In this document: positions 3,763 through 53,486 of the stretch, in pieces
How positions within the stretch are numbered: position 1 is the first letter of the stretch
Layout of the letters: every line of letters begins with the position of its first letter
Assembly (NCBI GenBank): GCA_017654855.1
Contig: CM030333.1
Coordinates: 3,534,001 to 3,598,000 of the forward strand
Direction: 5' to 3'
Origin: Podospora anserina
Taxonomy: Eukaryota
Length of the DNA stretch: 64,000 bases
The notes under the pieces: model-generated
Told to the model about the DNA's origin: nothing
The model's input: the letters and a program-made list of their open reading frames with translations, nothing else
Databases searched by the model: none
Made by a program: the position numbers and the translations under genes

Positions 3763-5598
3763 ATGGGTCTTCTGGAGCCCCTAATCTCAATGGCTCTGGT
3801 ATGGTAACTCTGACGCCATGGAGGATTCGATCCAACGGTCTAACCAATCTCACAGGGACGATCTCCTTATGACGAGGTAATCTTCCCAAATACCTCCCAG
3901 CAAAATGAACAAGACAACGAGCATGATGGATATCGTCAACTATACGATGAGCGGGGTCGCCCAATCAACCCGGAAACCCGGCGCATCAACAGAGATGTCG
4001 TTCGGTCGCATAACGAAGTCATGACGGTGATAGGTGTCGCTGAGCCTGACAACGGCCCCGATGATGCTCATGCAATGTCCTCTCATCGGCATAATGTCTA
4101 TGAGGACAGGTGGGGAAACAGACTGCTCAATCTAGGCGGTGTTCTTGATACGGCCTGTGTCTGGGGCGTGAATGGCATGAGACAGCGCATTTTGGTGAGA
4201 ACTTATCCCGCAGATCTGCAAACTCCCGGCTGACTGTAGTCTAGCTATACAAACGGTACAGTCGAGTGCCATTCACAGAGACATTCGCCCTCGCCAGACA
4301 GGATCAATCTCTAGCTGCACACTTCTTGGGCGGCTTGCCAGCATTTGGCCTGAATGCAGTGATCGATCGCATGGTAGCCCCAAAGGTCAAGGAATACCCA
4401 ATGTATGTTCTCACCATGAATAGCTTCATATCATACGCTGGCTAATCATGTATCTAGACTTGGCTATGCCTCCATGTATATCCGTCTCCACCTGGTTGTG
4501 TACACCACGTTCCAACGCTTCGGCATCATTCCGGCAACCGAACTTCTTCCCAACTGGAGATTCTTCATCCCCGGCTCAAGCATATCACCTATTGTCGTCC
4601 CACCGCTGCCAACATCCCTCTGTCCAGTCGGAATTCTCAAATGGATAGGCGGCACCCTCCTCGGCGTTGCCCCCCTCGGTGGATTCTTCGCCTACATGAT
4701 CGTCTACAACCACGTTGCCAAGTTCTTCCGAATGAAGATTATAAACAATCTACCACTCCCCGGTAACCCACGGCCGGCGAAACGCAGAGCGCTCCAGGAT
4801 ATCACTCCCGTCCCGCCGACCTTTACACTCGAGATCCCTCCACCTGTTGATCAACATCCCGTTGTCAGCGGCTCATCATCCACCCCACCACCTGCCACCG
4901 CACCCACGCAACAACAACAACCACAACCCACCACTCGCACCGCAGAGGTTCCCCCCCGAAGACAAAGCATAACAACCACCACCACCCCGGGCGCCGGCAT
5001 CCCCCTTGTAACGGACGACTACGCCTCAGAGGAAGAAGAGCTAGAAGTCAGCGCAACCCTCATCTCCTTCGACGTCGAAGCAGCTGACTCTTCCAACACC
5101 CTCAGCGGTAACTTCAGCAGCAACCCCGCCGAAACAATCAACTCGGCCAACCCAGGCATATGGTCTGCCGAGCTCCGCCCCAATCCATCGGAAAACAACC
5201 GCGCCGCCCAGGCAAGCAGGGAGCGCACCTTTCGGGACAATAAACTGAGACGATTACCTGCTGCGCTGGCGACGGATGTGTTTGCTATTGGGCCGTCAAG
5301 GTTGATCATGAGCCCGGTTGCAGCGTTGTGCTGGACGGCGATGATTAGGCCTTACTTGGCGAGGGCGGGGAGGTGGGGGGAGTTGGAGGGGGTGAATGAG
5401 GTTGGACTTTGGGGGGCGTTTAGCTGGGAGGGGGTTTCGAGCTTGGTGGGGATGGAGTTGGTGTTGTTTAATTTGATGGGGAGCGTTTGGACGGTGGTGA
5501 GTGGGTTGGCGTGGACGGTGAAGATGGATGAGGAGGAGTGGGAGGAGTGTGGGGAGGGGTTGAGGGGGGAGGAACAGGAGGGGGAGGAGGAGAGATGA
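3763..5598 (+). CDS. Conserved-looking fungal hypothetical protein, probably membrane-associated; multi-exon
   Basis: ATG 3763 (MGLLEPLISMAL), a GT..AG intron, then LYDERGRPINPETRRINRDVVRSHNEVM. Further short introns near 4195-4243 and 4403-4457 join it to the 4474-5598 ORF, which has hydrophobic segments. Confidence 0.7.
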
Positions 5599-7405: not shown

Positions 7406-7645
7406 GCGCACATGAGTGGCATGGTTAAGGTGGAAAAGGGTGGTATAGAAACCGGGAACGGGAACAGGAGGGTCGGTTTATCAAAATGGAAGGACTTTTT
7501 GGGTAACGACATAAAGATGGATGGGGGTACATATAACCTAACGTACATAATGATAATAAAGCTTCCAACTGCCATGTTCAACTAGTGCCCTTCCAACTTG
7601 TAACCATGATATAAGATCCTTCTTCACCTGTCATATCCTGAACAT

Positions 7646-9461
7646 TCAAGCAGCAACCTCCGCCAACTCCAACCCCTCCCTCCTCCACTGCCAATAACCC
7701 CCCCTAATCCGATCCCACTTCTCCATCAACCTCCTCAAGCACAAATCCGCCCTCTCCCTCTCCCCCAACTCCTTATAAACCTCGGCCAACAAATCCAACG
7801 CATGACTCGACCTCACCTCCTCCCCTTCCTCCCCCTCGCCCAACCCCTTGACAAACTCCTCGGCAAACTCCCTCACAGAACTCAACCCCCTCCCCCCTTT
7901 AACCAACACCCCCCTCAAGTAATTCCACCCCGACTGATTCTGCGGCGCCAACCTAATCTTCTCCTCCGCATAAGCCACCTCCCGATCAACAATCTCCCCA
8001 GGCACCTTTGGGTCCGCCTCGGTAGCCGCATACTTTTCTCCAGGCGTGCAGTTCTCCGGATCGGAAAACACCAAATAAAACCTATGCGACCAAGCCGAAT
8101 TGTTCCTCACATCCTGCTCAATCAGCTCCTCTGTGCTCCTCAGCTCCTCCGGGTTCCCCCACACCCCCAGCTTGCCCACCATCCAGGAGCGGTAGCTCCA
8201 CACGTGGTAGTTCTTTGTGTCTTCCGCCAATATCTGGGTCAGAAACTCCCTTTCCGAAGTAGCAAACGATGCCAGCGCCGGAGGGTCAGACGCGATGGAG
8301 GGGTGGTAGTGTTCTACCAACAAATTCCGGTGGTGCCAGATCTGGTAGTTTTTCAGGTTCTCCAGCGCGATCTGGTTGAGCCAGGTGATCTCGTCCGGGA
8401 TGGGGAGCTTCATGGCGAAGATGTTGGCCGCGCGGAAGAGCCAGACGGTGTAGTGCGCCGGGTTGAGGTTGATGATGTACTCGGTCAGCTTGAGGGAGCG
8501 TGGGGAGTACTCTTTTGCCGACATGACGGCGCGGAGGTAGGACATTGCTTGAACCAGCTGTTAGTCTCGATTCTCTGGAGTATGGGGCGGTGATAAAAGG
8601 GGCTGGGCTCACCTTCAGCGTAGTCAGGAGAATACGCAATCGCCGCCAGGGCGTTCTCCGGATCCTCCATCACAATCGGCACCACGTCATCCCACTCCGG
8701 ATCCAGCGCCAGCTTCCCCTGCCTCGCCATCCTCTCCGCGCCGTACAACTCCCTGCTTAGCCTCTCCATCTCTCTCCGTCGTTGCTTTTCCTCAGTATAC
8801 TCTGAATCAGTAACCAAAACCTGATCTCCCGTCTGGTAGTCCACAAACCCCCTCTTTTGCCTATCCCTCAGCTCCCTAAACCTCTGCGACTGCAGCTGCA
8901 GACAAGACAACGTCACTCTCTTCTCCTGCCGTATTCCCCACTCCTTGGCGGTATACTCCCCGATATCCCTCCCCCGTGAGTCAACACCTTTATGTTGCTG
9001 CTGCCGTTTCTTATATTTCCTCAGATTAAACCCCCTAGCAGGAAGCGAGTGCTCATTAACCGTCTTCCACAAATCCTTCTGCCCCTTTGCACCCAAAAAC
9101 CGAACCGGCAGCCGGGTGACAAGCCGTGAAGCAAGCCAGACAAGCTGTTCCGCTTGCGTCGTCGATCTCTTTCCCTCGAACGGGTGACAAAGCTCAAAAT
9201 GATATCTCGATAACTCGGCGACGGTGGAAGGTTCCTCCTTTTCTGGTTGTTTGGAAGCGTTGTTGTTGTTGTTGTTGGTACTAGGTGCAGCCGGAGCTGA
9301 TGGTTTGGTGGTGGTGACGGTGGTGGTGGCTGCTTGCAAACAAACAATACTTAGCATTCACAATACCAACCAAAACCCTAAACACAATAGAGCAGAAGAA
9401 GAAAAACAAACATACAACTTCCCGCTTTGGGCTTTTGCGCCGCTTTTCCTTTGGGCGGCAT
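7646..9461 (-). CDS. RAM2: Protein farnesyltransferase/geranylgeranyltransferase-I alpha subunit
   Basis: PPTA repeats (NPAHYTVWLFR, KNYQIWHHR, KNYHVWSYR, RNNSAWSHR, NQSGWNYL). ATG 9461 (MPPKGKAAQK), two introns, long N-terminal extension. Confidence 0.92.
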
Positions 9462-22511: not shown

Positions 22512-24236
22512 CTAAGCATCCCTGCGAAACGCATACTTCCAAAGCCCTCTAGGAGGCTCCGGAAGACCAGACTGTTCCTCCCACAGCTCATCTCCCCTCA
22601 CCAACCGCTCAACCTTCTCCTTCAACTGATCCTCAAACACCCTGGACCTCTCCTCCTCCCAAAATGGGTCCTCAATCGAGTAAGTGTGTTTGCTTGGTTC
22701 GACCAAGTTGGCGCAAAACCTGGCCAAAACCGTGTCAGAGGAGGAGTTCGGTTGACCCCAGAGTCGAAGGGGTGTGATGATACGATGGTATGCTTTTATA
22801 ATGGCGCCGCCCTGCTCCGCCGTCATGTCAACCCGGTCGTCCGGCGCGCCCCAGTCGCTCACATCGGCCATCACTACGCGGAGCGTCAGCCCGCGCAGGT
22901 TGAGCTTGTCCTTGGCCCAATCGACGGTAACGAGCCAGTCCTTCTGTGCGGACGAGTCGTCCTGAGGCCAGACTTCCCAGTTATACGGTGGGAAGACTAC
23001 TTCGAGAGAGCGGAGCATGTCGAGGCAACCCTGGGGAACGACGTCGCGGAGAAACTCGCTCACTGCGAAGCGATCGAACGGGTACTGGCGAGGCGACAGC
23101 TCCTCGTGGTTTGGCACGTCCGATGGGGAGGAGGAGTCGTAGTCGTGCACGACGAAGCGGTTCTGTGAGAAGAAAACCACCTGGGCGTCGAGGTAGAGGG
23201 TGCGGCAGATGAGAAACAAGTCGGTTGGGGCCGCCCAGCACCGGCAAGAATCCGAAGCGGCGGAATGCTGAAGACGGCAGAAGCAACCAATGGTCCAGCA
23301 TTCGACGAACTGGCATCCGTTGTGTACTTCAGGAGGGCACGATGCGCCGTACTCGCACCCGACGCGGCACAAGGAATATTTCCTGGATGTTCGACCTTGC
23401 CTACTCCATGTGACCTCGTTCCACGGGGTAATGAGGTCAGTATACTCGAGTATGCGGAGACGAAGCTCTTGTGGAAGCTTGAGCAAGTGACTGGCTAATG
23501 GCGCCGTCGAAGAGGACAGGCACGGCTTAGTGAGCGCATCGGGTGCCGTCTGGGTGATGCCACGAGCGTATTTGACGGCGACATCGGCAATCTGTTGAAG
23601 CTGGCTGTTTGTCTTCCGGCAGAGTCGAACGTGGCAGTTGGCCAATGGCGATAGGAGCTTTAGGGGCGCCACTGCCAGTTGAGCTGCCTCGACATCGTCT
23701 TCCTGAACGTCACAAACGAGCTTTATTTCCAGAGCTCGGGGGTTGACATGAGCCGACATGTAGGTAGCCGCGTCCGTCCACTCGGCAAGCATATCCTTCG
23801 TAGATGAGACCGAAAGAGTGGCCGGGGCTTGATGCAGGCCGCCATGGGCGTGGGAGCAGTAGGTCTGGCCATCGTAAGGGTATACACGTAGCAAATGGCA
23901 GCAGTATGAGTGGTTGCCGTCTTCAGGTTGATGGCACGAAGCCTCATTCAGAATGACCCTGAGTGAGGTTAAAGACGCCAAGGACCGGGATGTAAGAGAT
24001 CTCAAAGGCGCAAGGGAGTGAGGGCTGGTGTAGCGGATGATGAACCTGTTCCTCGAGTACAGCAAAGTAGATGCTTCCTGATAGATGATTTTGCAGGAAA
24101 TCAATAAGCCAAAGAATTCTGTTTCCTGGCCGTTCAACCTGAAAAAGTGCGGGTGATAGTCTGCCAAACCAACCCATTCATAGATCTGACGGCGTATGTC
24201 AGGAGACAGTCGCAAAAACGGGGGAGTGCACTCCAT
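22512..24236 (-). CDS. Hypothetical protein with two tandem F-box-like modules
   Basis: Intronless, 574 aa. PFLRLSPDIRRQIY...SCKIIYQEASTLLYSRNRF recurs as LLKLPQELRLRILEY...ICRTLYLDAQVVFFSQNRF. Confidence 0.8.
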   Translation of the reverse strand: MECTPPFLRLSPDIRRQIYEWVGLADYHPHFFRLNGQETEFFGLLISCKIIYQEASTLLYSRNRFIIRYTSPHSLAPLRSLTSRSLASLTSLRVILNEASCHQPEDGNHSYCCHLLRVYPYDGQTYCSHAHGGLHQAPATLSVSSTKDMLAEWTDAATYMSAHVNPRALEIKLVCDVQEDDVEAAQLAVAPLKLLSPLANCHVRLCRKTNSQLQQIADVAVKYARGITQTAPDALTKPCLSSSTAPLASHLLKLPQELRLRILEYTDLITPWNEVTWSRQGRTSRKYSLCRVGCEYGASCPPEVHNGCQFVECWTIGCFCRLQHSAASDSCRCWAAPTDLFLICRTLYLDAQVVFFSQNRFVVHDYDSSSPSDVPNHEELSPRQYPFDRFAVSEFLRDVVPQGCLDMLRSLEVVFPPYNWEVWPQDDSSAQKDWLVTVDWAKDKLNLRGLTLRVVMADVSDWGAPDDRVDMTAEQGGAIIKAYHRIITPLRLWGQPNSSSDTVLARFCANLVEPSKHTYSIEDPFWEEERSRVFEDQLKEKVERLVRGDELWEEQSGLPEPPRGLWKYAFRRDA

Positions 24237-25200
24237 GCTGTGATAATATTGCTGTTGGCTGGTATGCGAAAGCGGTCCGGTGTAGGCTCAGGTAAGGGAC
24301 GGTCAGAATATGAAGAAAGGGAGGTGTTGGGAGGAAAGTGTACCTAGCCTAGCTGGCGCAGGCGGCAAAGAGTTGTCATTGATTTTGGGTTGCCAGGGGT
24401 CTACAGTTGAGCCACTCATGGCAGTGCTAAAGGTGGGGCAAGGTAAGGTAGCGACTACTGAGCCAGTAAGCGACCTCAGGTGCCTCAAGTGTGTACCTAT
24501 GTCTTTCGCCCGTATTGCGGAATCCGGGCATCGTGTTCAGGGTCGGTGTGCCGCGACGTCAACACCAACGTCACGGCGGGATGCGATGGATATGTTTGGT
24601 TTCATCAACGTCTACAAATAGACATATTGGGCTTCAGCGACCGCATCGTGTGTAACATGCGCCCTAGTAACACTGCTTGCTAGATTCAGCCCCAGACCTG
24701 CTCGGCCAACTCAAGCACCGCACAAAGGCAGGACAATGTCTCACATCGTCTGGCTGCCGCTATCAATTCGTAATCTAGGTGCTGTATTAGATACTCTCGT
24801 GACGGGACGGCCTGATGGCCACTTCCATGTCTGCGGCAATGGCCTTACGCCGCCGTCCAACCCGTTCGTTATGAGCTAGTGTTTGAGGTGTCGAGGTCTA
24901 AAAACAACTACCAAGGTCTATCATGAAGATATTCCCAACTCAAGTACCGCGTTCAGCAGTATAAGAACTCAAGAGGCAGACTGCATATCACAGCTTCTAT
25001 CCTCATCACTACTCACTCAACACAGCATCTTCTTTGTCAATCCCTCTCTCATCATCATTCTCGCTAGCCGAGAATCAACGATCTTCGTCAACAGGTTCTC
25101 ATTATCATTTTCCGCTCCCATCGCTAAACGAGAAGCCATCACCCTTACTCTCTAAACACTACTTTTTTCCATCAATAACCCCACCCCCCCTTTCTTCAAT

Positions 25201-25818
25201 ATGGCCAACTCTATGACCAGACACGACAGCGGCAACAACGCCACCTGGACCAAGATCATCGTCTCCAAGACGGACTACCGCGACATCATGTGGACCGACC
25301 TCCTCGAGATCGCCGAAGACCACTGGAAGTGGGTCCAGGCCCAACCCGGCGCCTACACCCGCTGGGAGTCCTGCCTCGTCGCCGCCCTCTTCCTCCCCTC
25401 CACCAAAGGCGGCGTCATCTTCTTGTCTACCATCCCCCGGGGGAGCAAGCACACGGAGATGATGAACGGCGCCCGCGCCGCCCCGGCCTGGTTCCACGCC
25501 ACTACGGGGGGCACCAACCGCAACACCAACCTGCAGCTCCATGCCGAGGATGGCGCCGAGTTCCTCTTCGAGACATCACCGTACGCCAGGGGCATCGTCA
25601 GCAGGAACCTCCAGTACGTCACCCCGGATCGCGACAACGCGCACAGCCGCATGAAGCTGGCCGTCTGGGGTCGCCATAAGACCTCGCCTGCCCAAGGCGA
25701 GAGCATCGCGCTGTGCACGGTTAGCGAGAAGCAGCCCAAGTGCCCGGCTGTGGCGCGGGCGCTGAATATTGCCTACTGCGAACGGTACAAGGTACGGTTT
25801 GAGCAGCAGCACAGATAA
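25201..25818 (+). CDS. Orphan protein, putative Zn-dependent deaminase fold
   Basis: Intronless 205-aa ORF, visibly GC-rich with strong C-ending codon bias and a good start context. HAE motif (LHAEDG) and a C-x8-C pair (LCTVSEKQPKC). The CDS is well supported; the function is inferred. Confidence 0.75.
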   Translation: MANSMTRHDSGNNATWTKIIVSKTDYRDIMWTDLLEIAEDHWKWVQAQPGAYTRWESCLVAALFLPSTKGGVIFLSTIPRGSKHTEMMNGARAAPAWFHATTGGTNRNTNLQLHAEDGAEFLFETSPYARGIVSRNLQYVTPDRDNAHSRMKLAVWGRHKTSPAQGESIALCTVSEKQPKCPAVARALNIAYCERYKVRFEQQHR

Positions 25819-26343
25819 GCAGCTTGTTATCCTCCTACCTTGGCAGTGGTAATGGCTTAACGAAGCAGTGGAGAGAAATGGGTGGCAGTCTTTGGAGTTG
25901 GGCGGTAGCATTTTGTTTTTGCTTTTTTGAATTTGGGATAGACGGGATGATAGTATGGTTCTGGATACGAGTCTGGTAATGGTGGGATTATAATGGCTGG
26001 CACCATACAAGTTGGATTAGCTAGATTAGGTAGCTTACTGGATACTCTTAAATATTTGGATAGATATCTGCACATCAGGCGCGCTCTTAGGCCCTCTTCC
26101 AACTTTCACTGGACTTTTGTGCAACACCACGTTTCTGGATTTAGTGACTGAGTTGAGCCTTCGCTTTTGATACTAGAACGTACCTCTCAGTTCTTATTTT
26201 GCTTCAGGTACAGTACAAGGAATCCGCACACTGTGAACATACTTCTTTATTTCTTAACTTTCATATTATCAAACATTTCGGGAGATTCCTAAAGGCCTTA
26301 GAAACAAGTCACACAAATACTAGTGACAGAGTGAGAGACAGAT

Positions 26344-26451
26344 AAAAGAAAAGAAAAGGGAAAAAGGTGAAGAGAAAGAGAAAAAAAGAGAGAAAAAAAG
26401 AGAGAAAAAAAGAGAGAAAAAAAAAGAGAGAGAGAAAAAAAAGGAAAAGAA
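26344..26451 (+). repeat. Polypurine tract with imperfect (GAGAGAAAAAAA)n units
   Basis: About 108 nt with a single pyrimidine; 26369-26451 is purine-only. Confidence 0.9.
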
Positions 26452-26927
26452 CATCACCCTCAAACAGAAACAATCCATCATCAAAACTCCTCACAAATAG
26501 ACATCTGCCGAAAGGCCTATTTCAAAGTTTGAACCACGCTTCAGAGACCTTTTCATTTCCGGTAAAATCTTTGTGTCTCGCTATATGTGCAATGGGTGCT
26601 ATCATGACTTTTGCCCTACTAGACTCTTTTCCCTACCCACTTGACCACACGACCATGTGCTGAAACAATATCTCGGTGAAGTCAAAACAAGAAGTCTATG
26701 AGATCAAGGATATTGCGACCTGTATTTCAGGACACCCATTCTCAACCTGGTCTGGCGATGGAGTTTGCAAAGTGCATATGCGTGTGGATAGGTATATAGG
26801 TAAGATACCTTACGGAAAGAGCTTTTCTAGCAGGTAAAATTATGCGAGTATGCAAATAGTTTGTAAAAATATACTATGCTTAGTTCCCGCCCACAGCACA
26901 AAAATATCCACCTCCTCTCACTCCCAC

Positions 26928-29726
26928 TTAAACAGGCGGCACCCTCCCCCCCTCACAAACCCCCGTATCCGTATAACAAGCCGTAAACAACCTATCGCTC
27001 GCCTCCCCAATCCAAACCGTATACCTCTTCCCCCCAACCCCCGGCACAACCCAGTTCTGCAGCTCCGTGTCCCACACGCTCAAGTCCTTCCTGGTCAGCT
27101 CAACCGTCACCGTCTCCTCCTCCCCCGGAGCCAAAACCCTCGTCTTCTCAAAGTCCCTCAGCTGCACAACAGGCGTATCATACGGGATCCCCTCAGGATA
27201 CTGAACATAAGCCTGCACCGAAGCCCGTCCCGAGAACGTATCCCCAGTGTTCTTGACCGTAACTGGGACACGGAAAGCAATATCCCAAAGCGCAGGATTA
27301 CCCCCCTCCCCGCCACCGGCTGCGGGACCGGGCTTCTGGGCGGTGCTGTACCCAGCGGGATAGTTATACTTCTTCACCCCGGCGATACCAACAGCGTAGG
27401 CGTTATCCGCGTCGTTCTTGTTGAGCCAGGAGTAGAGGTACCGCCAGATCCTGTTGAACCCTTCCGGCCAGTACGCCTCTGAGGCGGGGGGGATTTCGGT
27501 CGAGTACACCGGCGTTGAGCCTTTGGGGGCACGGGCAGGAGGAACCAGAGACAGTGGAGTGACAGACTCGATGGTGGCATCAAACGAGAAGTTGGTGTAG
27601 CTGAGACCGTGGCCAAAAGCAAAGCGGGGCCTGATCTTCTCCTTGTTGAGCCAGCGGTAGTCAATGTACAGGCCCTCGCTGTACGTGTCCTGGACCTGAC
27701 CAAAGGCAAAGCCACGGAGGTTGGCGATGCTGTCGGGGAAGTCGTTGGCGCGCTTGGTGATGGAGTAGGGAAGGTGACCGCTAGGGGAGACATCGCCAAA
27801 GAGAATGTTGGCCAACGACTCGCCCGCTTCTTGACCGGGAAGGTGCTGAAACAGGACGCCCTTGACGCGAGGGTTGTCGATCCAGGATTCGAGATCGAGA
27901 GGGCCGACGGTTTGAGCTACCACAATAACGTTGTTGTACTTCTCGGCAGTCTTCCTGACCAGCTCGTCACCGTTATGCCACGCAGCCAGCTTGGCACTGT
28001 TGCGATCACCGTTGTTGCCCTCAACAGTGAACGAGTTCTCTCCAGCATCGGAGGTGATGAACACGATGGCAACGTCATCGGGCGACGGTGTAGGGTGGAA
28101 CCAAGGGAAGCCGTCGGTGTTGAAGAACTTGACGTCGGGAACCCGCTTCCTGATAGCCGAGATCGGGTCATCCAAGTAAGGATAATCGGCAACACCAGAA
28201 CCCCAGCCCATGCCAAGTGTTCCTTTGTTGCAGGCGCGGTTCATGCAAGCGTTGGGCCCATCGGGGTTGACCTGGGCAGCAGTACCGAAGACATGGAGAG
28301 ACTGCGAAGTCGTCAGGGGAAGGAAGCTCCCATTGTTCTTGAGAAGGGTGATGGCATCCTGGGCGACCTCTCTGGCGATCAAATAATGATCAGCCTGAAC
28401 ATTGACAAACCAGTTCACCTGACCCTTGGGGGAGAAGAGAGCTGCAGGATAAAGCAGACCGTCACGGTCACGGGTGTTTGACGAGAAGTTAGGCCTTGGG
28501 TGGTCCCTATCCTGACCGAACTTGTACCATGTCGCGACGATTCTGGTGACCATGTCGTTCAGTCTGTCAAGAGGCACAGACCCGTTGAGAACCGATCTGC
28601 TGAGCTCATAGTGCCAGTTGCTGAAACCAAATAGGGGAATGTTGGTGTCACCTGGCATGTTCATGTCGAGACCTGCCAACGCGGAGTCGACTCCGGAGAT
28701 GTGGGACAGCCAGTCAGACATGACGAAGCCCTGGAATCCAAGCTCATCCTTCAAAATACCGTTGATGAGATAGCTGTGCTGAGAGCAAGCAGACCCGTTT
28801 ACAGCATTGTAAGCTGTCATTGCCGACCCAACACCGGCATGGACGGATTCGGCAAAGGGCCACAGGTAGAGCTCGTGCAGAGTCCGATCATCTGTGGGGA
28901 GTCAGCCTTTTAGTCCGTCAAAGAGCAAGAGTCCACTCACCAATATTGGCGCTATATCCAGGCTGGAAGGGGTTGTACATTCTATACATCTCCTGCTCGT
29001 TGCCGATCAGATGCTTGATAGTAGCAATGATGCCTTGTTCCTGAACGCCCTTGATCGTCAGGGCAGCAGCCTTGGCTTGAAGAACTGGGTCAGATCCAAA
29101 GCCCTCCCAGTTGCGGCCACCCAAAGGCTTCCGCCCAAGAGGGCCTACGGAAGGACCCAGATAGACATTTGTGCCCTTGCCGCGATGCTCTTCACCAATA
29201 GCAACACCACGAGCATAGATCAGCTTCTTGTCAAACGTTGCACCAGTGGTGATGCCAGCAGGAAACGCAGTGACGTTGTCAGCTGACGACACACCTAACG
29301 CAGAGTCCTGAAGACACATGCGCGGGAACCCCAATCTTTCTGCGCTTCCAGTATTTCCTACGCATGGACTAGCGTATCATGTGTTAGTCAAAATCAGAAA
29401 AACGTCTCATTAGGGTGGTGGCACTGACCCTATTCACATGTCAGTCAGTCTCTTGTGCTTTTATATAAGCCATGTCTGGTTAATAACTCACCCATAAAGA
29501 TGCCAATGCCTGAGGTGATGTTGGTCTTTTCAGCCAAGGTCATCTGCGAGACCAAGGCTTCGGCCTTGCTGTAAGCCTCTTCCCACGAAGCGACCCATCC
29601 TCCATGAGGCGCTGGATAGTATGGGGCAGCGACGAATCCAGGCGGAACAGGATCTCGAGGCGTCACGACGCTGGCGGCAAGAGAGGTGGAGGCGAAGGCG
29701 CCCAAGACTAATGAGCGGTATGCCAT
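26928..29726 (-). CDS. Secreted GH3 beta-glucosidase
   Basis: Signal peptide, [40 protein letters not shown], catalytic GFVMSDW, C-terminal Fn3-like region (QLRDFEK). Three introns, two of them adjacent (see findings). Confidence 0.96.
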
Positions 29727-31959: not shown

Positions 31960-33077
31960 ATGAAGGCCTCCCTGTTTACCAGCCTATCCGTGGCTGCCCT
32001 TGCCCTTGCGGTGCCCCAGAAGCGGAGTGAGTCAATCATGCATCCACACATACAATTCAGTGAGCTATCCTGACCAACTCCTGATAGGTGTTCCCACCGC
32101 TGCTGAGCTGGCTAGGTTCAAAGTCTTTGCCGAGTATCAGGCTGCTGCGTTTTGCATGACCGAGGGCCAGCCTGCCGGCACCCAGGTCGCCTGTCTTGAG
32201 GGCCAGTGCAACACCCTGACATCGCGCAATGTTACCGTCCACTCATCTTCCTTCACCGGCACCATCTTGGATACTCGAGGCTTTGTCTCTGTTGACCCCG
32301 TAGCCAAGGAGATTGTCTTGACCTTCAGGGGCACCGTTTCCATCAGAAACTGGGTGGCAGAGTACGTCTTATCCACTTGTCTCTGTGTACCAACATCAGA
32401 TCATCTAACACCCAAGCAGCTTCATCTTTGTCCAAGTCCCTTGCGACTACGCCTTTGGCTGCCTCGTCCACACCGGCTTCCTCGCCTCCTGGGCCGAAGT
32501 CAAGAGCCGTGCCATGGCCGCGGTCACCGCCGCCAGACAGGCCCACCCGACCTTCAAGGTCACCGTCACCGGTTACTCCCTCGGCGCCGCCGTCGGCACC
32601 ATCGCCGCTGCCGACATCCGCAGGAGCCTCAAGATCCCCGTTGATCTCATCACCTTTGGCTCTCCCCGCGTGGGAAACAATGCGTTTGCCAAGTTCGTCA
32701 CTGCTGGGGCTGGTAGCGAGTACCGCCTCACCCACGCCAACGACCCGATTGCCCGTCTCCCGCCCATCATCTTCAACTACAGACACACCAGCCCTGAGTA
32801 CTGGTTTGATGAGGGAGCCGATGGTGTTGTGACTCTCGATGAGGTCCAGGTCTGCGAGGGGCATGCCAACATCCAGTGCAATGGTGGGACGGGAGACTTC
32901 AACATGGATGTGCATGGCTGGTATTTCCAGAGGTTCACCGGCTGTGCGCCCACGGAACAGCCTTTCAAGGCCCGTAGCACGCCCATCAGTGATGCGGAGC
33001 TTGCGAAGATTGTGAACGAGTGGGTGAAGGAGGACAAGGTGTTGGCCAAGAACTTGGAGCTGAGTGGTGAGGCGTAA
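31960..33077 (+). CDS. Secreted class 3 lipase/esterase
   Basis: Signal peptide MKASLFTSLSVAALALAV, IVLTFRGTVSIRNW, HTGF, nucleophile elbow TGYSLG, TFGSPRVGN, NDPIARLPP, HGWYF. Introns about 32027-32087 and 32362-32419. Confidence 0.92.
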
Positions 33078-33267
33078 ATATCTGGTGGCGAGGGAGTGCG
33101 TGTATGATACCCTATGATCTTGGATATGAATCATGATAATATTGGAAGATTTGCAGTCTCGGGGAACTGAACCGGGTCCTTGGGTCTGGGTGCCATGTTT
33201 CATGCTGTGTGACGATGGATGGTTTAATGTGGGGTGATCAAATATGTGGTGGTCCGTCTCGGGATAT

Positions 33268-35250
33268 CTATGCCAGCCATATATCTTGAAACTCTGAATC
33301 ATCCTCCATCGCCTCGCCGTCCATTATACTGTAAACGTAAGCTGCTCCAACCATATGATGCACAACATCTCCTCCCTTCTGCGTCACAGGCCTGATAACA
33401 AACGGCACATGCGCACCGGGGAATATCACAACTTGGTCACCGACCTGGACGTCCTGCAGCGTGGTCCCCGGCCTTCCCGTGCTGTCAACAAACGAACGCT
33501 GTCTTTGGACCTTGCAAGCACCGAGATACATGAATAGGTCATTGGGTAGCTCTGTTTGCTCCTCGTCATCTACATCGGACCAAGACTGTTTCTTGCCTGT
33601 CAATATCAAGGTTTCAAACCCGGCGAGAAATACTTCTCCCCAAAGGCCATCGTCCGCTCGGGCCGTCCCGTCCACGTCAGAGTCGAGAACGGGAACCCGC
33701 CAGACGTTCTCGAGAGTCGAGGTTAGGAATTCCGAGTTACCTGCGAGAGAAGCTCGGTACGTCTCGAGCATATCGATGAGTTCAAACAGCCATTTTGTCA
33801 CAACTGCGTACCACTCTGCCGAATACTTCTGGACGGTCATGTCGACCAAGGTCTTCCCAACGTTGGCAACTCGGCCAACTATCCGCCCGGGAAGAGAAAT
33901 GCGCGGCTCCCCATACGCAGCCTGACCGATTTCGGATCTTGCTGACCATTCCTCCCAACTCGTCCCCTTGGTGGCGTGATATAGGTTGTTTATAGGATGC
34001 CGATCCTCGACTTTGACTGCAAGGGCGGTGAGGAACTCAGATGTCTGGTCAATGACCCATGATGGGATCGCAGCAGGGTGATGCTTGACGCTGAACAGTC
34101 TTTGGTAGCTGCTTAAAATGTTTGGGCCGTACTTCATCAGCAAGACCTTGCTCACGTCGAAAGACGCTCTTTCCATGGTGTTGGTGCTTGAGTAATCAAC
34201 CGGGATTTTGCAGCGATCCTCGGGTTGCACCATCCCCAGGATGCCGTATATCATGTCCCTCTCGTCGGTAGCGGCAACCGTGTTGGACTGGAAGGTCACC
34301 TCCAGAGCCTCGAAAAGGGAAAGTCCGGCCTCTCCTACGCCTCGTTCCTGGGCATTGATCAGGCTGGCCTCGTATTTCGTACTCGCCGCCTCGAGATGGC
34401 CAAAGATCCCGATGATGATGTTCACGGCATTGGCCAGGTTAGAATATTTGTCGTCCCCGATGCGCAGTACTCGGTGCGACACCGCCAGCAAGACAGACCA
34501 GATGTCTTTGACGTCTTCCCAGAGCACGAATTCATTCCCACAGAGAACCATCGCCGCCTTGGCGAGCACAACCTCCTGAACGACCCACACGCGATGCCAC
34601 CACGGCCGGTCGAAGAATAATTTCCACAGAGCTTCAAAGTCGAGTCGACCATCTTCATCACCACCACTGTCGGCGAGCTCGACCACCTCCTCTCCCAAGC
34701 GGGCCATTCGCTCCTCGAACTGGAGGTCCTCCCGGTCAGTGATGGTCTCAATATTGATGTACCCTTCATCGGTCGAGTCCCGGTACATAGCCGCCAGTGT
34801 CCTGATTGTCTGGAACGCGCCCCCGTCCGGCTCGGGCCCGAGCCAGATCAGCACATTCTTTGCAAGAGAGTACACCGAGCTCATGAGCCGAACCTGCACG
34901 GCCTTTTCGTCGTTGTCGGACTGGTTGATGCAGATGGCGTCGATCCATATCCGCACCCTCACCTGGGAGGCGTGAAGCTGGGTGAGGGCCGTGAAGAGGT
35001 TTTTGGTGACTTGGAAAACATGACCGTCGAGGATGATGGGCCGGGTGTCATTTGCGTCGCCCCAAACGTAGGAGAGAGCATTGTAGACCGGTGCAGGTTC
35101 GGCATCGAGGAACGCGTGGCTCAAGCTGAGGTTTATGGAGGGTGAGTCGCCTAGATTCTCATGGCTAAGGGGTGGGTTGACAAAGTTGAAAGTGAGAAGG
35201 CGAATCTCGTGTCGGTCGTGGTCAAGGGGCGTATAGGAAAACATGTTCAT
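33268..35250 (-). CDS. HET-domain protein (HET-6-like)
   Basis: EIRLL, YNALSYVWG, IWIDAICINQSDNDEKAVQVRLMSSVYSLA, RPWWHRVWVVQEVVLA, ATDERDMIYGILG, VGAAYVYSIMDGE. Confidence 0.93.
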   Translation of the reverse strand: MNMFSYTPLDHDRHEIRLLTFNFVNPPLSHENLGDSPSINLSLSHAFLDAEPAPVYNALSYVWGDANDTRPIILDGHVFQVTKNLFTALTQLHASQVRVRIWIDAICINQSDNDEKAVQVRLMSSVYSLAKNVLIWLGPEPDGGAFQTIRTLAAMYRDSTDEGYINIETITDREDLQFEERMARLGEEVVELADSGGDEDGRLDFEALWKLFFDRPWWHRVWVVQEVVLAKAAMVLCGNEFVLWEDVKDIWSVLLAVSHRVLRIGDDKYSNLANAVNIIIGIFGHLEAASTKYEASLINAQERGVGEAGLSLFEALEVTFQSNTVAATDERDMIYGILGMVQPEDRCKIPVDYSSTNTMERASFDVSKVLLMKYGPNILSSYQRLFSVKHHPAAIPSWVIDQTSEFLTALAVKVEDRHPINNLYHATKGTSWEEWSARSEIGQAAYGEPRISLPGRIVGRVANVGKTLVDMTVQKYSAEWYAVVTKWLFELIDMLETYRASLAGNSEFLTSTLENVWRVPVLDSDVDGTARADDGLWGEVFLAGFETLILTGKKQSWSDVDDEEQTELPNDLFMYLGACKVQRQRSFVDSTGRPGTTLQDVQVGDQVVIFPGAHVPFVIRPVTQKGGDVVHHMVGAAYVYSIMDGEAMEDDSEFQDIWLA

Positions 35251-35564
35251 TGACAAGTTAGCGAATTGTTCTGAAGGGTATTTCTCATGATTCGCATGAC
35301 ATTACACAAGGCTTCTTTTTGGCTTCAAGAGGGGTTTCATGACGTATACCTGTTGTTTAGGCTATTGTACTACTTGGCATTCATCAGCCATCCCATAGCT
35401 AAACCGGTGCTTGAATGCTTGTCTTGGGGATAGTTCTCACCCACCAATTACAACCGTTCAAAATCACCAACAACACCCCTTTCTGTAGTTGTCAGCACCA
35501 AAAAAGCATCGCAGTACTTCCAATTGGATGGCAGCAGATAGAAAAGGTGAAAAAAGAGCCAAAA

Positions 35565-35824: not shown

Positions 35825-37883
35825 CTACGCAATAATCAGCTCCCTCTCTTTAAACTTACAATCCACAAACTTTGTTAATTCGCCCATGCCAACCCGGACG
35901 TATAGATCCCCAAACTCAGCAGAATTTTGCTTAACCAACAGCACATTCAGAGACTGCCTCTGCTCATCCTCTTCGTCCACATTCCGGGACACAACAACCG
36001 CCATAAAAGGGCCAGCAACCCTATCCCCACGATCAAACACCCCCCAACCAAGGACCTCCTCAACATCACCACCCAACAGAGCATAGCACGCAGAATGCTC
36101 CTCAAAATCGATCACATAAGCATGGATATCACAACCCACATTCCCCAACCTCTCACCAGAAGATCTCACCACCTCCACAGTCAGGCCCCTCAATAACAAC
36201 CTCGCCTCTCTAACCATTTGATCATCAGGCATCACTCCAGACGGCACACCCCCTTCAATTTCCACACAACACTCCACCCTGCCCTCCGGAACAAACGGCT
36301 CCCACGCCACCGGTCCTTCCAACGAAGCCCAAGACCAACTAGGTGCTCGCCGCGTCCACTTGGTCGTCTCCCTCAACTTCACTTCCTCCATCGCCCGATT
36401 CCCATCCGCACGCCACATCATATTCACCGCAAGCATGTCACTCCCCGGACCCCCAGCAGCCACCCCTACGCAAAACGAAATACTATTCCTCATATCCCTA
36501 GCCTTGACATTGGCAATCATACCTTCAACAGCAAATAACTTATCCTCGCCAAAGGTGAGCTCACACGCGGTGTAGTTCTAAACAATGGCGCACCACGCCC
36601 AGGCGGGACCGTGGGAAACGGAGGCGCTGCTGCCGAGGCGTTTGTCTTGATGCTGCGGTCACCAGTCAGTTACATGCATCAAGGGAAAGGGGGACGGTTG
36701 TTGATCTCACTGCTGCCAAGACAAGACCATCCTCAGCAACACTATGCCGGATACACTCAAAGAACAGCTGTCCAACAGAAAACAGGACAATTCTCCGGCT
36801 CAGATTTCGTTCCTGGAGGACCCAGCCCCTGCTGTTCCATACGCTCGCAGTGACGACTTTGTCAAAGGATGGGGTATGTGGTCCTACGAAGAATGTTCGG
36901 GGCTTTGTACGTCCCGGTGGTAGGTAAGAGAGCTCAATAACGGGCTGACTTGTGGTGGTGTCTCGAGGGTGAAACAAACCGCCGGTGGACGAGCTAGAAC
37001 CCGTCGCGGCAATGGTAAGGTGGGCGTTCTGATAGATGAGGCCCATTTGGGGTGCCTCTCGCAGCCAGTCGGGGCTATCATTCTGGATGATACAAAGGGC
37101 GTCAATCCAGAGGTAGCGGAGGCCGAGATTCCTCGTTGCGATGACGGCATCGCGGAGGGTCGCTGGCATGGCGGATATGTTTATTCCCGTGGTGGTGTGT
37201 TCAGCCAAGTTCGACTTGAGGGTGCGAAGTTGTGTGGCTGCTGGACCCCAGCAGTAGCTCAACGCCGCGTATCGTCCCAGTGCATTCTGACGATCCGTCA
37301 GTTTGACAAAGGGGGTGTTGTTAGTCCCGACGTCCAACAGCCTGGTGGGAAAGCGGGTTGTGGATGATGTGTCTGCATCCGCCAAGGGCACAGAGTTGCA
37401 CTCTGTATGGCTTCTCAGACAGGTTTCGAGCCATGTCTGGATTTGGCGGAAAGCTCCAGGGGAGTTTGGTGCTGGATGAAGAGCGTGGCCGGCAATATCC
37501 CCAGATAGAGCTGCATCACTTGATGGATCTGCCCAAGCGTGCAAAAAAGCTCGGGCGTTGGAATTAGTTACGAGAACTGTTATTACACAGAGCTCACGTC
37601 TTGTGTGTTCTACCCTGTGGTATTTGTCTGAAGACAGAAGTACCTGGTGTACCCTCCCTTTCTTCAGCTTGATGGTGGGGCACGAGGTTTTGATTAGCTC
37701 GTCAAGTATTAACTTGCAAAGCGGACAGAAACTTGAAGACTGCCCCAGGTCTTGATAGGTTCGGTGGCGGTAGCCGAGCTGTTGACCGGTGGCTGTTGTG
37801 CGTATGGATGAGACTGTAAATGGTGATACACCACGACAGGAATCGCAGAGGCCCGAGGTGCTTTCCGTGTTCAGAGAGCTCAT
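35825..37883 (-). pseudogene. HET-domain gene with one in-frame premature TAG (36580-36578)
   Basis: FPTRLLDV, YAALSYCWG, YLWIDALCIIQ, WNSRGWVLQER. Phase-0 intron 36710-36653, then HQDKR...WAWCAIV*NYTACELTFGEDKLFAVEG, continuing in frame into the 35825-36520 ORF (RAPSWSWAS). Confidence 0.8.
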
Positions 37884-39699
37884 GTTTGCCTGGTAATCTT
37901 GACACGACTCAACAGTAAGGTCAGGTATCAAAGGTGGTGATACTGGTTTAGGCTGGAAGCAAAGGAATAGACGCAAGTCCAACAACCAGACCAATGGTGC
38001 CTTTTCTCGCCGCTTTTTGCTCCAATCAAGTGACGGTTCCCTGTACTCTTTACTTGGTCGCTATCTACAGACAGCTGCGCCGCTCACAAAAAACTTACCC
38101 ACGCCGCATAAAAGAATCAGCAAAATATCTCCACGGAACGTTACCACTATTGTCGATGTTGGTGTTTGGATGCAGCAACGTTGGTTATGGTGGGGCTCGG
38201 CAAGTTTCCCTTCCACATGACGGCACGGCACGATGATTTCCAGCCAGGGTTTCGGGACCCGGCAGCTGGACACGATGGCCCGTGCCAAGAACATTCCAAC
38301 GAGAATCGAGAAGATCATCAAAAATAGATCCATCTTCACCCGGGAGGCCAAAACAATCGAAGATCTTTCAAGTTTCACTTCAGCTGAAGATCATGAAGAT
38401 CGACCTGAAACCACCTGGAATGTGATGAGTTGGAGGCTTTGGAATCGCAGATGCAACCACAACAGTTCGGCATAAACAAACTGAACGAATCGACGGAAAT
38501 CAGAACAGCCACCTCCACATCTCCTCCGCAAACCTCCTTTCCACCACCACGAACCACGACAAGGGTTGTCTTCCGAAGGGCACAAACGGGCACACGGGTA
38601 GGAGCAGATGGCGCAAAACAACGCCTTCTTGCATCCCCATTCCCGTATCTTTCTTTTTGCCGACGGACCCCTCAACGTCAATATTACCGGCCCAATTCCT
38701 CAGAAATGGATGCCTCGGACTTCGGCACTGGAGGCAAGTTTGAGAGGTCGATAAAAAATCCCAAAAATGGAAATGCAAAAATACCGCTCTGACCAACATC
38801 AAAAGATTCAGGTCCCCACTGTCCCATCAACGTGGCTCGGATCAAACCCCAAGCGTTCTAGGCTCTTGGTTGGCGTTCAATAGTGACAGCTTGGACAGGA
38901 GGCCATCATGCCAGTCACTTGTCTGCAGCCCAATCATCTCGGGGCGAAATCGAATGCCCATCCCCATACACAACAACTCCCATCTGATGCTGGCTCTTGG
39001 GGCTTCCCAATGTGGGAGGTAAGGTGTTTGCTGGTCACTGCAGCGAGTGCAGTGTGAGCGTTATTCCGGGCATCCAGTGCGGCTGGAAGCACTGATGGTG
39101 TGGATTGGCGGTGATGGAGTGATTCGAGATGAGCCCAGCCAATCACATCGGCTCCTTTCGGCAAGCAGCCCCTCTTGGCAGCTCTTGGACCCTGGGATTC
39201 AGACGAACAAGCACCCCTGTCCCCAATAATACGAACGTGGGAAGCGAACAGGGGGGGCCGGATAGGATAAGGCAGAGGTCGAGGCTTGGGTGAGATGCGG
39301 GATCCGCATTCGCCAGGGGGTCACAAGGTTCATGCAGGCCTCACTCCCAATCTCCTCTCTCAGCTCGTCGACGGAAGAGAAAAGAAAAACCGATATGAAG
39401 AACGCCGCTGCCGCTCACATCGGCCTGTGGGTCGACTCCTGTTCTTCTTCTTCTCTTTCTTCTCGAACACCCCGTTTGTGCGACAGAAGAGACGTTCAGT
39501 CTTTCTTCTTCTCGGGCATTGTCGTCTGCTGTTGTCCGATCTTACATACGTTCGCTTTCCGCCATATCATTCACTCGCTCACTCGCTCGAATCCGAGACG
39601 AGATCTCACACATCGTACAACCCTCGCTATATAGACTCGACATTTCCGTCATAATACCTAATGTTTTAGACAAGATCGCAACCAGAGAACCGAGACACA

Positions 39700-51738: not shown

Positions 51739-53486
51739 AGAAGAATATGTGATGGGGGAGGCGACAGAAGGAGAGAGGGAGAAGAAAAGCATTACGATAT
51801 ACCCTCGGGGGGTGTTGAAATCGCAAGGAAAGGAAAAAGAACGGAAGGGAATGGCATGGAAAGGACATGGGCAAGGGCGTTTTTTGGGATGTGGGTTGAA
51901 ATAGGCATTTGGGATTGATTGGGTTATATAGGAAATTCTTTGGAAAGCGATTTGACGGGTTACATCTTGAAGATAGAGGAGGAGGAAGTTTGGAAAGAAG
52001 TAGAATCGGATGAGAATGACGACGACTAAGACTGGACCAATTGGTTCGGAGAGTTGAGAAAATATTATTAATTTTGATGATGACCCTTTGGTTGCCCGCC
52101 CTGTGTGATGATTGTGAATGGCTTCGAGACATGTGAGAGGACTCCGGAGACAGACTGAGACAGTCCACCACACAACTCCGGCGAAGAGTGGATGTTGATG
52201 ATTCAAAACTCAACATCGTTCCCTTATGAAGAGAGGTTTGGTGGAGATTTTCCCACGTCATTTTTTGTGAGTGTGCGCTTCGGCCTCGTGTCGTTGGAAA
52301 GCGAATGAGTGTGGATCAGTCAGTGGCTTGTGCATCCCCTGCCGTGGGCGTTGCTGGGAAGATGAATGACGGGAATTAGTGCGGTTCGGGAGTGTTGCTA
52401 TCTACTTCAGGGCGAGAGGATGCTGGCGACGTGTTAAGGGTGTCTCATCACCAACCTTGTCGGTCTCATGTCCGTTTGGGCCTAGCCCGGACGCCCCGGC
52501 TGCTACCCGAAATCACATCCCCAGAAGAAGGCGACTTTGGGGAGGTCCAAGATGGAGATCTGGGTGGGTTGTGTTACCAACCGCCAATTAAATGAGGCCG
52601 GGGTTCCTCGAAATACACTGAAACTGCCCTGCTCTGTTACTTTCCACTTTGTCGTCTCTTTCTCTCCCTTCCTTTCGGTGTGTGCGCTCACCGGTCTAAT
52701 CATCAGTCGCTCTTTTTACCTGAACTGTGTTCGTTGTTCTACTGTCGCTCCCTTTGTCTACCCGTATCGCTTTTGCCCAACATCGCATTACTCTACCTGA
52801 ATAACCCAATTGCCAATTGGGTCTCAAGTTCTGCGACCTCAGCCCTGACGTGTTGCGGTTTCATCGAATCTACCCTCTTTATTGGAGGACGCGCTGCCTG
52901 GCTCTGCTCTTGACACCACCCACTCGGATTAGGCTTTGGGCGGAATCGCATACGGCGTCTCGCCTTCTTTTTTGACAAGTCGCCCTAACCCAAGGTTTTG
53001 CGCCTGGCGGACAACGCACTGAGCGGGCTTTCTACAATCTGCACGTGCCCGCCACCAAGATTTCCTGTTTGTTCTGGGCCTTCTAGTTGGATCGGGGCCT
53101 TCTTTTGCTTGTTCTTCCTTGTTCGTGTCGCCCTTTCAGCGAATCATTTGACTGCCTGTGGGCACCTGCAACGGAACGCAAGGCGCAGCACGAAGAGCGA
53201 ATCACAGCGGTCAAGCTTTCCCAAGCTTCCGGAGCTTCAGCAGCCGCCAAAAACGCCCTACCTCTTCCTCCACCCTTTGTAAACTATGGGACGCTCCGAG
53301 CAGAGGAAATCATACAACGTCTCGCCAGGCTCATAGAAGGGCCATTATGTCGCGCGGCGACCTGCCCCGAGATCACCACTGAACGAACATACAAGAAGAA
53401 AACGAAGAAGAAGAAGAAGAAGCTCGACCGACACCACGACAGACCGACGACAACTACACCGACGACGACGAAGAAGAACAACACCA

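Follow-up and report, generated by a model that had tools for sequence, protein, structure and literature searches.

What kind of enzyme, if any, is encoded by a small intronless open reading frame (ORF) of Podospora anserina whose translation places one His, one Glu and two Cys residues much as a deaminase would? The ORF occupies positions 25201–25818 of the forward strand within the 64,000-nucleotide stretch of DNA that was analysed here (the window; assembly GCA_017654855.1, contig CM030333.1, positions 3,534,001 to 3,598,000). The initial annotation had described it as a stand-alone orphan with the topology of a Zn-dependent nucleic-acid deaminase, sitting among conflict-type genes and suited to a toxin or defence function. 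Our results indicate that the protein is probably a Zn-dependent hydrolytic deaminase and that it represents a new, divergent Pezizomycotina clade of the cytidine-deaminase-like superfamily, as judged from its predicted structure. The deaminase-type part of the annotation is retained on these grounds; its nucleic-acid, toxin or defence role is tentative, the claim of a conflict neighbourhood is weak, and the gene is not an orphan. With regard to its general character, the sequence reads as that of a cytoplasmic, single-domain protein.

The enzyme-class assignment starts from the predicted structure. The AlphaFold2 model obtained with a 79-row family alignment (A2) reached a predicted local distance difference test score (pLDDT) of 94.7 and a predicted template modelling score (pTM) of 0.92, and the pLDDT of the five models lay between 92.9 and 94.7. 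The model runs through the alpha/beta core of the CDA clan CL0109 (helix 1, strands 1 and 2, helix 2, strand 3, helix 3 and strand 4, which in the clan are followed by helix 4 and strand 5 or by a hairpin) and closes with helix 4. Helix 2 opens at HAE and helix 3 at C181, so that the deaminase core order proposed from the letters alone is reproduced by the prediction; all elements listed by the initial annotation were also present in the ORF, each agreeing with the DSSP assignment of the model. When compared with the deaminase core, the model adds an N-terminal hairpin and two inserts, and strand 5 is absent because the protein ends after helix 4. The coding sequence and its elements are as follows.

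25201..25818, forward strand: coding sequence (P0001), 205 amino acids plus stop; from the ORF list, the translation, the G+C content at third codon positions (GC3) and orthologue lengths
25216..25266, forward strand: N-terminal beta-hairpin, residues 6-22 (strands 6-8 and 15-22), with Trp16; from DSSP and A2 counts
25291..25428, forward strand: helix 1 (31-45, TDLLEIAEDHWKWV), strand 1 (58-65, SCLVAALF) and strand 2 (71-76, GVIFLS); from DSSP
25441..25503, forward strand: helical insert, helices 81-88 and 95-101, with the nearly invariant A94-P95-x-W97; from DSSP and A2 counts
25540..25551, forward strand: H114-A115-E116-D117 at the N-terminus of helix 2 (115-124); from the sequence, A2 counts and DSSP
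25651..25674, forward strand: strand 3, residues 151-158 (MKLAVWGR), with the nearly invariant G157; from DSSP and A2 counts
25714..25743, forward strand: C172-x8-C181; from the sequence, A2 counts and DSSP
25768..25815, forward strand: strand 4 (190-192, IAY) and terminal helix 4 (195-203), followed by the end of the protein; from DSSP

In the model, the N-terminal hairpin is family-specific and lies outside the canonical deaminase core, and most structural alignments begin near residue 28. The helical insert with A94-P95-x-W97 probably caps the active-site pocket. The [H/C/D]xE signature that the clan carries at the N-terminus of helix 2 is found as H114-A-E116 (HAE, 25540-25548), which opens the helix 115-124. 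The two Cys residues expected at the N-terminus of helix 3 occur in a variant, long-spacer form: C172 (codon 25714-25716) lies in the 22-residue loop after strand 3, and C181 (codon 25741-25743) opens helix 3 (181-187). In the superfamily, Zn is held at the helix 2 side of the core, and its location is structurally similar in cytidine deaminases and JAB domains, according to the accessible text of PMC3239186. H114 and C181 of the model appear to occupy this location, because they stand at the N-termini of helices 2 and 3. We therefore propose from the model that H114 is the first Zn ligand, C172 and C181 the second and third, and E116 the proton-shuttling Glu. By analogy with the superfamily, Zn would be held by H114, C172 and C181 between the N-termini of helices 2 and 3, and E116 would activate the Zn-bound water; the water would then attack the amino-bearing carbon of a cytosine-, adenine- or guanine-type ring, with release of ammonia. 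The A94-P-x-W97 insert, D117, E124 and Y139 may shape the substrate pocket.

Ranking structural matches of the model by Z among 48,161 chains placed deaminases at 26 of the top 29 positions. The best matches were small-molecule or nucleoside deaminases (blasticidin-S deaminase and cytidine deaminases), followed lower down by dCMP deaminases, ADAT2/3, yeast cytosine deaminase, a type VI secretion (T6S) cytidine-deaminase toxin, RibD and DddB. Non-deaminase members of the clan (ATIC, FdhD and LpxI) were found at ranks 12, 30-32 and 35. A separate comparison of protein language-model features gave, among named clusters, YwqJ-deaminase (0.87-0.88), MsddA-like (0.85), Toxin-deaminase (0.78) and OTT_1508 (0.77) as the neighbours of the protein; all of these scores are below 0.9 and serve as leads only.

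The residues proposed for catalysis are also conserved across the family. Specifically, H114 is kept in 70 of the 79 rows, E116 in 77, C172 in 74 (the rest being gaps) and C181 in 73, as the initial annotation had anticipated for H, E, C and C among homologues. To judge from these alignment counts, the HxE...C...C motif is more than a chance occurrence. The same helix keeps A115 (71/79), D117 (76/79) and E124 (71/79), and the helical insert keeps A94 (76/79), P95 (64/79) and W97 (76/79). Conservation is likewise high at G157 (77/79), at position 156 just before it (43 W and 29 Y), at L188 (74/79), at W16 (W in 70/79) and around strands 1 and 2 (C58 46/79, V60 69/79, A61 72/79, S76 68/79); it fades in the family consensus after about residue 192. 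Position 114 is H in 70 rows, D in 5, C in 3 and R in 1, and C172 is preceded by L in 48 rows and by P in 17; the family consensus ahead of the first Cys reads G-x4-L-C. Replacement of H by C and a 'PC' before the first Cys are typical of the deaminase superfamily. Both Cys are present in 73 rows; 2 residues separate them in 9 of these rows, 8 or 9 residues in 33, and 20 residues at most, so that 64 of the 73 carry a variant form of CxxC with 6-20 residues between the Cys; two of the nine CxxC members read PCxxC. Given these nine members with the exact classical spacing, C-x8-C can be viewed as an insertion into the classical CxxC.

How widely is this protein distributed? The description as an orphan does not stand, as phmmer against 1.84 billion cluster representatives returned 78 matches at E<=1e-3 (26 at <=1e-10 and 6 at <=1e-30), one of which was spurious. 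Four matches were left out, namely three fragments (41-114 aa) and a 2,210-aa sheep homeobox protein; the latter was rejected as a relative, having matched through low-complexity sequence. Alignment A2 was composed of the 73 phmmer matches, the window protein and its five close relatives, and we estimate the family at about 74 cluster representatives. The closest protein (96% identity) is 'hypothetical protein QC764_209325' of Podospora pseudoanserina. Nine sequences (orthologues or alleles) that are 92-100% identical to the window protein and 201-205 aa long form its 90% cluster, with P. pseudoanserina, P. bellae-mahoneyi, P. comata, P. pseudocomata and P. pseudopauciseta among their species, and every motif residue is invariant among these nine near-identical sequences of the P. 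anserina species complex. Of 29 family clusters that were looked up, 9 carry organism names; together with the closest relatives of the window protein, all members so named are Pezizomycotina, and the three lineages checked were Sordariomycetes, Coniocybomycetes and Dothideomycetes, all within that group. The named genera were Podospora, Cercophora, Triangularia, Diaporthe, Corynascus, Chaetomium, Dichotomopilus, Parachaetomium, Chaenotheca and Trypethelium/Viridothelium. A profile search of a word-indexed protein collection yielded zero additional members, and metagenome scans with alignment A1 and with P0016 found no relative.

The family falls into a secreted and a cytoplasmic branch. Signal-peptide-like N-termini were seen in 23 of 79 members by a crude hydrophobicity test and in 4 borderline cases by eye, and about a third of the members would on this count be secreted. 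In a quick, midpoint-rooted maximum-likelihood tree of 76 rows (three rows with <130 domain residues were left out), one half of 37 rows held all 27 signal-peptide rows and the other, of 39 rows, held none (Shimodaira-Hasegawa-like approximate likelihood-ratio test, SH-aLRT, 88). The window protein sits in the signal-free half. In many secreted members (P0046, P0031, P0029, P0062, P0066, P0067, P0078, P0056 and P0057 in alignment A5), the head continues into an acidic linker and dibasic (KR/RR) sites, and the C-terminal part is a Cys-rich module of about 350 aa that bears the motifs SCxxQNEDPDQGIxxYCVC ... PEFxxGDxxLxEAIxxxC. A search with this module gave 35 proteins, of which 8 had a deaminase-like head and one a subtilase head; the other module-bearing proteins that were scanned had heads without a Pfam match. 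These module-bearing proteins (P0089-P0121 among them) come from lichen fungi, Penicillium, Hypoxylon, Lachnellula and Rhinocladiella, and their sequences indicate that the Cys-rich module is a shared module with variable heads. The signal-free relatives, on the other hand, often have disordered tails rich in S/G/R. These tails contain runs that resemble RGG or RS, a recurrent L..LM..L.[IV] motif similar to a nuclear-export signal (NES) and, near the C-terminus, WW-like motifs (e.g., P0008, P0009, P0012, P0015, P0017, P0026, P0028, P0053 and P0070). One cluster of them bears the UniRef name 'WW domain-containing protein'. The window protein has no such tail.

On which substrate would the enzyme act? 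By analogy, we tentatively favour a polynucleotide (RNA or DNA), because the language-model neighbours are toxin-like, the secreted heads are modular and the tails of relatives are RNA-binding-like; the isoelectric point (pI) of the domain, 8.95, may be counted on the same side. The nucleic-acid, toxin or defence role put forward in the initial annotation is, in a similar vein, a tentative proposal, and several observations weigh against it. The enzymes at the head of the structural ranking have small molecules or nucleosides as substrates, neither Pfam nor the model shows a nucleic-acid-binding domain in the window protein, no partner or immunity gene is evident, and high GC3 combined with 92-100% identity among sister species is not arms-race-like. 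Neither the optimised codons nor the conservation among sister species points specifically to a conflict gene.

Some of these observations fit better with the alternative that survives best, which keeps the same fold and chemistry (and so is nested in the enzyme-class assignment) and takes as substrate a free base, nucleoside, nucleotide or nucleoside-type small molecule. The enzyme would then serve in salvage, nitrogen scavenging or detoxification, as blasticidin-S and cytidine deaminases do, with the secreted relatives acting on extracellular compounds. Besides the small-molecule or nucleoside deaminases at the head of the structural ranking, this would suit a single small domain that lacks a nucleic-acid-binding module, a single locus that is well conserved across the species complex, and a GC3 of 0.88, which suggests abundant expression and would be awkward for an unregulated mutator. 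The ordinary subtilase head found on the shared module adds that the module may simply carry secreted enzymes. Nonetheless, we rate a small-molecule substrate, though a serious rival, as somewhat less likely than a polynucleotide. Sequence similarity to cytidine deaminase (CDA) or blasticidin-S deaminase (BSD) is absent. The fungal protein also lacks strand 5 and the canonical C-terminal elements, from which CDA and BSD form their oligomer and pocket. By language-model features it lies closest to toxin-type polynucleotide deaminases and not to CDA, the RGG/RS-like, WW-like and NES-like tails of the cytoplasmic relatives are atypical for metabolic enzymes, and the top Z scores may merely reflect that CDA and BSD are minimal cores.

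The polynucleotide deaminase can be extended to a broader picture, in which the family is an unrecognised Pezizomycotina-wide clade with secreted 'warheads' on a shared module, and the Podospora enzyme is an active polynucleotide deaminase for the control of non-self or selfish elements. The secreted heads would be joined by an acidic linker and a dibasic processing site to the Cys-rich module, which would make these members a fungal, head-variable counterpart of bacterial polymorphic toxins. Taken as a whole, this picture is doubtful.

A less favourable alternative is that the protein has a deaminase-like fold and is no deaminase, being instead a Zn-dependent hydrolase of another kind or a protein with a non-catalytic binding or regulatory role, with a disulfide in the secreted branch. 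The CDA clan does include such proteins (ATIC, FdhD and LpxI are named as non-deaminases in the accessible part of bioRxiv 10.1101/2023.06.29.547047), and several features of the family weigh against deaminase activity in the same direction. In 6 of 79 members, Asp or Arg stands where the His is expected: Asp takes the place of H114 (xDAED) in P0005 (Diaporthe ilicicola), P0006, P0022, P0054 and P0061, and Arg does so in one member. P0005 and P0006 are the nearest relatives outside Sordariales, and besides Asp they have the short CxxC form; in these members Asp could either serve as a ligand or mark inactive variants. In addition, the long Cys spacer is unusual, and the domain of secreted members often contains just 2-3 Cys; in these members the two Cys might be joined in a disulfide rather than bind Zn. 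It is nevertheless improbable that the fold serves another purpose, considering that E116, H114 and both Cys are jointly conserved in the secreted and cytoplasmic halves, in the pattern that defines catalytic deaminases, and that nine members carry an exact CxxC.

The hydrolytic deaminase must also be set against searches that gave no link to known deaminases. Foldseek, which the initial annotation had proposed as a check against deaminase structures, matched none of 350,542 PDB chains at E<=0.001 (best E 0.29), and the rows listed contained no deaminase. Pfam gave no match to the window ORF at E<=1, and across all 79 members no deaminase model scored at E<=0.01; relaxing the threshold to E<=10 brought up no consistent family, PF00383 matching one member (E 0.17); recognition by a sequence profile of a CL0109 member was thus not obtained. 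NCBIfam and PADLOC gave a relevant match in 0 of 8 members, and searches of the PDB by phmmer and by family profile returned chance or low-complexity rows alone. Profile-profile comparison with hhalign gave probabilities of <=0.2% against E. coli TadA and Cdd, 0.1-0.2% against a 30-sequence PF00383 alignment and 0.07-0.13% against two bacterial PF14431-positive YwqJ-type sequences. Within these insignificant alignments, the motif regions were the sole local stretches to be proposed: C172/C181 were aligned with the PCGHC of E. coli Cdd, and on the YwqJ-type side 'G..FPAC..C' was paired with the block from strand 3 through the loop to the Cys, and LHAE with LHAED. The local placements are coherent and not significant. 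On one point these results bear out the initial annotation, in that the protein is unlike the housekeeping Tad2/Fcy1/Cdd1 enzymes (PF00383 in 1/79 at E 0.17; hhalign <=0.2%). That the fold assignment itself is an artefact, with a misleading model or misleading structural matches and a coincidental HxE...C...C in an unrelated fungal family, would explain the silence of Foldseek and of all profile-profile tests, and yet it is very improbable given five AlphaFold2 models at pLDDT 92.9-94.7 from a 79-sequence alignment, 26 deaminases in the top 29 of 48,161 chains, which cannot be chance, motif residues placed at the start of the two helices that hold Zn in the superfamily, and an independent sequence-feature search that likewise points to deaminase families.

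Turning to the gene itself, the ORF runs from ATG to TAA in a single exon (205 aa in the ORF list and translation), and the earlier statements that it is intronless and lacks a signal peptide are true for the window copy. A second in-frame Met at codon 5 marks the start of the domain that is conserved in the family, and annotated orthologues are 201-205 aa long. The ORF was also said to be more GC-rich than its flanks, which is correct (0.636 overall, against 0.36-0.50, with values of 0.50 and 0.40 for its two flanks); neighbouring genes are GC-rich as well, so this value is ordinary when taken alone, and it is GC3 that stands out. Because GC3 reaches 0.879, far above the 0.55-0.69 of seven other window genes, the frame is clearly coding and its codon usage unusually biased, which may reflect high expression. 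The codon bias is unusually strong for a small gene with a patchy distribution. No second copy was found within the window by tblastn (best other match E 0.12).

Transcript hints came from contigs of four public runs from four studies, whose RNA nature was guessed, not recorded. Single contigs span the ORF without gaps or joints in three of them (X4 24990-26079, X11 25028-26022 and X1 25046-26089), and the contigs of the fourth run cover it in two pieces.

24990..26089, forward strand: single-contig span; from assemblies guessed to be RNA

If the runs are RNA, this cover would be a weak hint of an unspliced mRNA of about 1.0-1.1 kb, with 5' and 3' untranslated regions (UTRs) of about 155-210 nt and about 200-270 nt, respectively. 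The flanks at 24300-24770 and 26130-26650 had zero cover in the four runs and were not used as evidence. Position 25887, in the presumed 3'UTR, is A in the window and G in all four assemblies, and is the sole mismatch to the window across about 1 kb of contigs; the difference may be a polymorphism between strains or may reflect an A-to-I change at the RNA level. A GAAA-type, purine-rich low-complexity tract lies 3' of the gene at 26300-26500, of which 26338-26451 was skipped as a repeat in contig placement.

The gene had been placed among conflict-type genes, and this proved to be a weak claim. Its direct neighbours are a DUF7730 gene and a GH3 glycosidase gene, and the HET-domain genes lie 7.5-12 kb off among housekeeping genes.

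22512-24236, reverse strand: DUF7730 gene (E 1.3e-8) with a weak 2EXR match, 574 aa, upstream; from Pfam
26928-28901, reverse strand: GH3 glycosidase gene, downstream; from Pfam
33268-35301, reverse strand: HET-domain gene; from Pfam
36666-38060, reverse strand: HET-domain gene; from Pfam

The DUF7730 gene is divergent from the deaminase-like gene, with a common intergenic region of about 965 bp. The two HET-domain genes stand in tandem orientation with a Pfam-less ORF (35825-36577) between them, and no other conflict-type genes were seen in the window. Its remaining annotated genes encode Utp13, a GHMP kinase, a Ste24-type peptidase, peroxidase-WSC proteins, a fungal transcription factor, DnaJ, HAD and Rit1. 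Long open frames at 4420-5598, 7610-9357, 31964-33323, 46114-47978 and 51097-52209 have no Pfam match at E<=0.001-0.01. On this gene content, the window does not read as a conflict island.

Has the family been described before? In the accessible literature, we found no description of the family, of its presumed locus names or of fungal secreted deaminases, and the supplements of PMC3239186 and of the preprints could hold relatives; the accessible text of PMC3482391 likewise contains no description of the family. Two large deaminase-mining efforts took their candidates from Pfam or InterPro profiles, as stated in the accessible parts of bioRxiv 10.1101/2023.06.29.547047 and 10.1101/2023.05.21.541555. 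Because such profiles detect 0 of the 79 members, the family would never have been screened. A survey from 2018 regarded the secreted deaminases of animals and slime moulds as unique among eukaryotes, according to the text accessible to us (PMC5889660). A link to the fungal A-to-I editing factor Ame1 was considered and rejected, since Ame1 is, in the accessible account, a DUF726 alpha/beta hydrolase. We also rejected the possibility that the gene is among the 'adenosine deaminases' induced during Podospora incompatibility; in the accessible text of PMC3689799 those are Pfam-annotated, and the window gene is Pfam-less.

If active, the family would add a compact, structurally trimmed deaminase scaffold and the first fungal secreted deaminases, and would provide a candidate, open to testing, for mutagenic or editing activities of filamentous fungi that lack an explanation. 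Should the broader picture of secreted warheads and a polynucleotide deaminase be true, the compact core of the enzyme (about 190 residues, lacking strand 5) would offer a new scaffold for base editors. With a small molecule as substrate, it would still be a new enzyme clade, of more ordinary interest.

Comparisons with named clades of the superfamily will be useful for placing the family. The CDA and BSD structures (PDB 3oj6, 3b8f, 3dmo, 1af2 and 6l08) have no detectable sequence similarity to the fungal protein. Unlike these enzymes, it adds an N-terminal hairpin and a 21-residue helical insert before helix 2, stretches CxxC to C-x8-C in a loop, and ends in a helix after strand 4, without strand 5.

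The bacterial polymorphic-toxin deaminases (YwqJ, XOO_2897, MsddA-like, SsdA/DYW-like and DddA/SCP1.201) include the nearest named language-model neighbours (YwqJ and MsddA-like), and the secreted branch of the fungal family offers a parallel to them. They differ in that the fungal domain is N-terminal and not C-terminal, that no immunity gene is evident, and that the window copy is cytoplasmic. Moreover, PF14440 (XOO_2897; 0/79 at E<=10 among the families listed), PF14431 (YwqJ-deaminase; 0/79), PF14441 (OTT_1508; 0/79 at E<=10) and other clan models match none of the fungal members. For XOO_2897, the fungal architecture fits the published description in the accessible passage, and the comparison is by description only. 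The likeness is one of architecture alone: the model ends in helix 195-203 after strand 190-192, and C58 stands at the start of strand 1 (46/79). In a search of genomes, PF14440 was absent from E. coli K-12, one Klebsiella genome and 401 sampled Pseudomonadota genomes, and PF14431 was above the cut-off in 1 of the 401.

The fungal OTT_1508 clade shares a helical insert with the Podospora family. It consists of fast-evolving fungal deaminases with a proposed role in defence against non-self or selfish elements, and is characterised by GxxK before CxxC and by an N-terminal alpha+beta domain, according to the accessible text of Iyer et al. 2011 (PMC3239186). In contrast, the Podospora family has neither GxxK nor a conserved Lys before the Cys motif (consensus G-x4-L-C), has a short hairpin only before helix 1 and no separate N-terminal alpha+beta domain, and lacks strand 5, and its Podospora orthologues are not strongly divergent.

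With regard to eukaryotic secreted deaminases, the SNADs and the dictyostelid secreted AADs combine the deaminase fold with a signal peptide, some of them with a Cys-rich C-terminal domain (Krishnan et al. 2018, PMC5889660, accessible text). This parallels the secreted half of the fungal family; the window copy is not secreted, the clade differs, and no AID/APOBEC features were tested or found in the fungal family. Taken together with the predicted fold, these comparisons, in which XOO_2897 is compared by description, lead us to file the family as a new clade of the superfamily and not as a member of any named clade.

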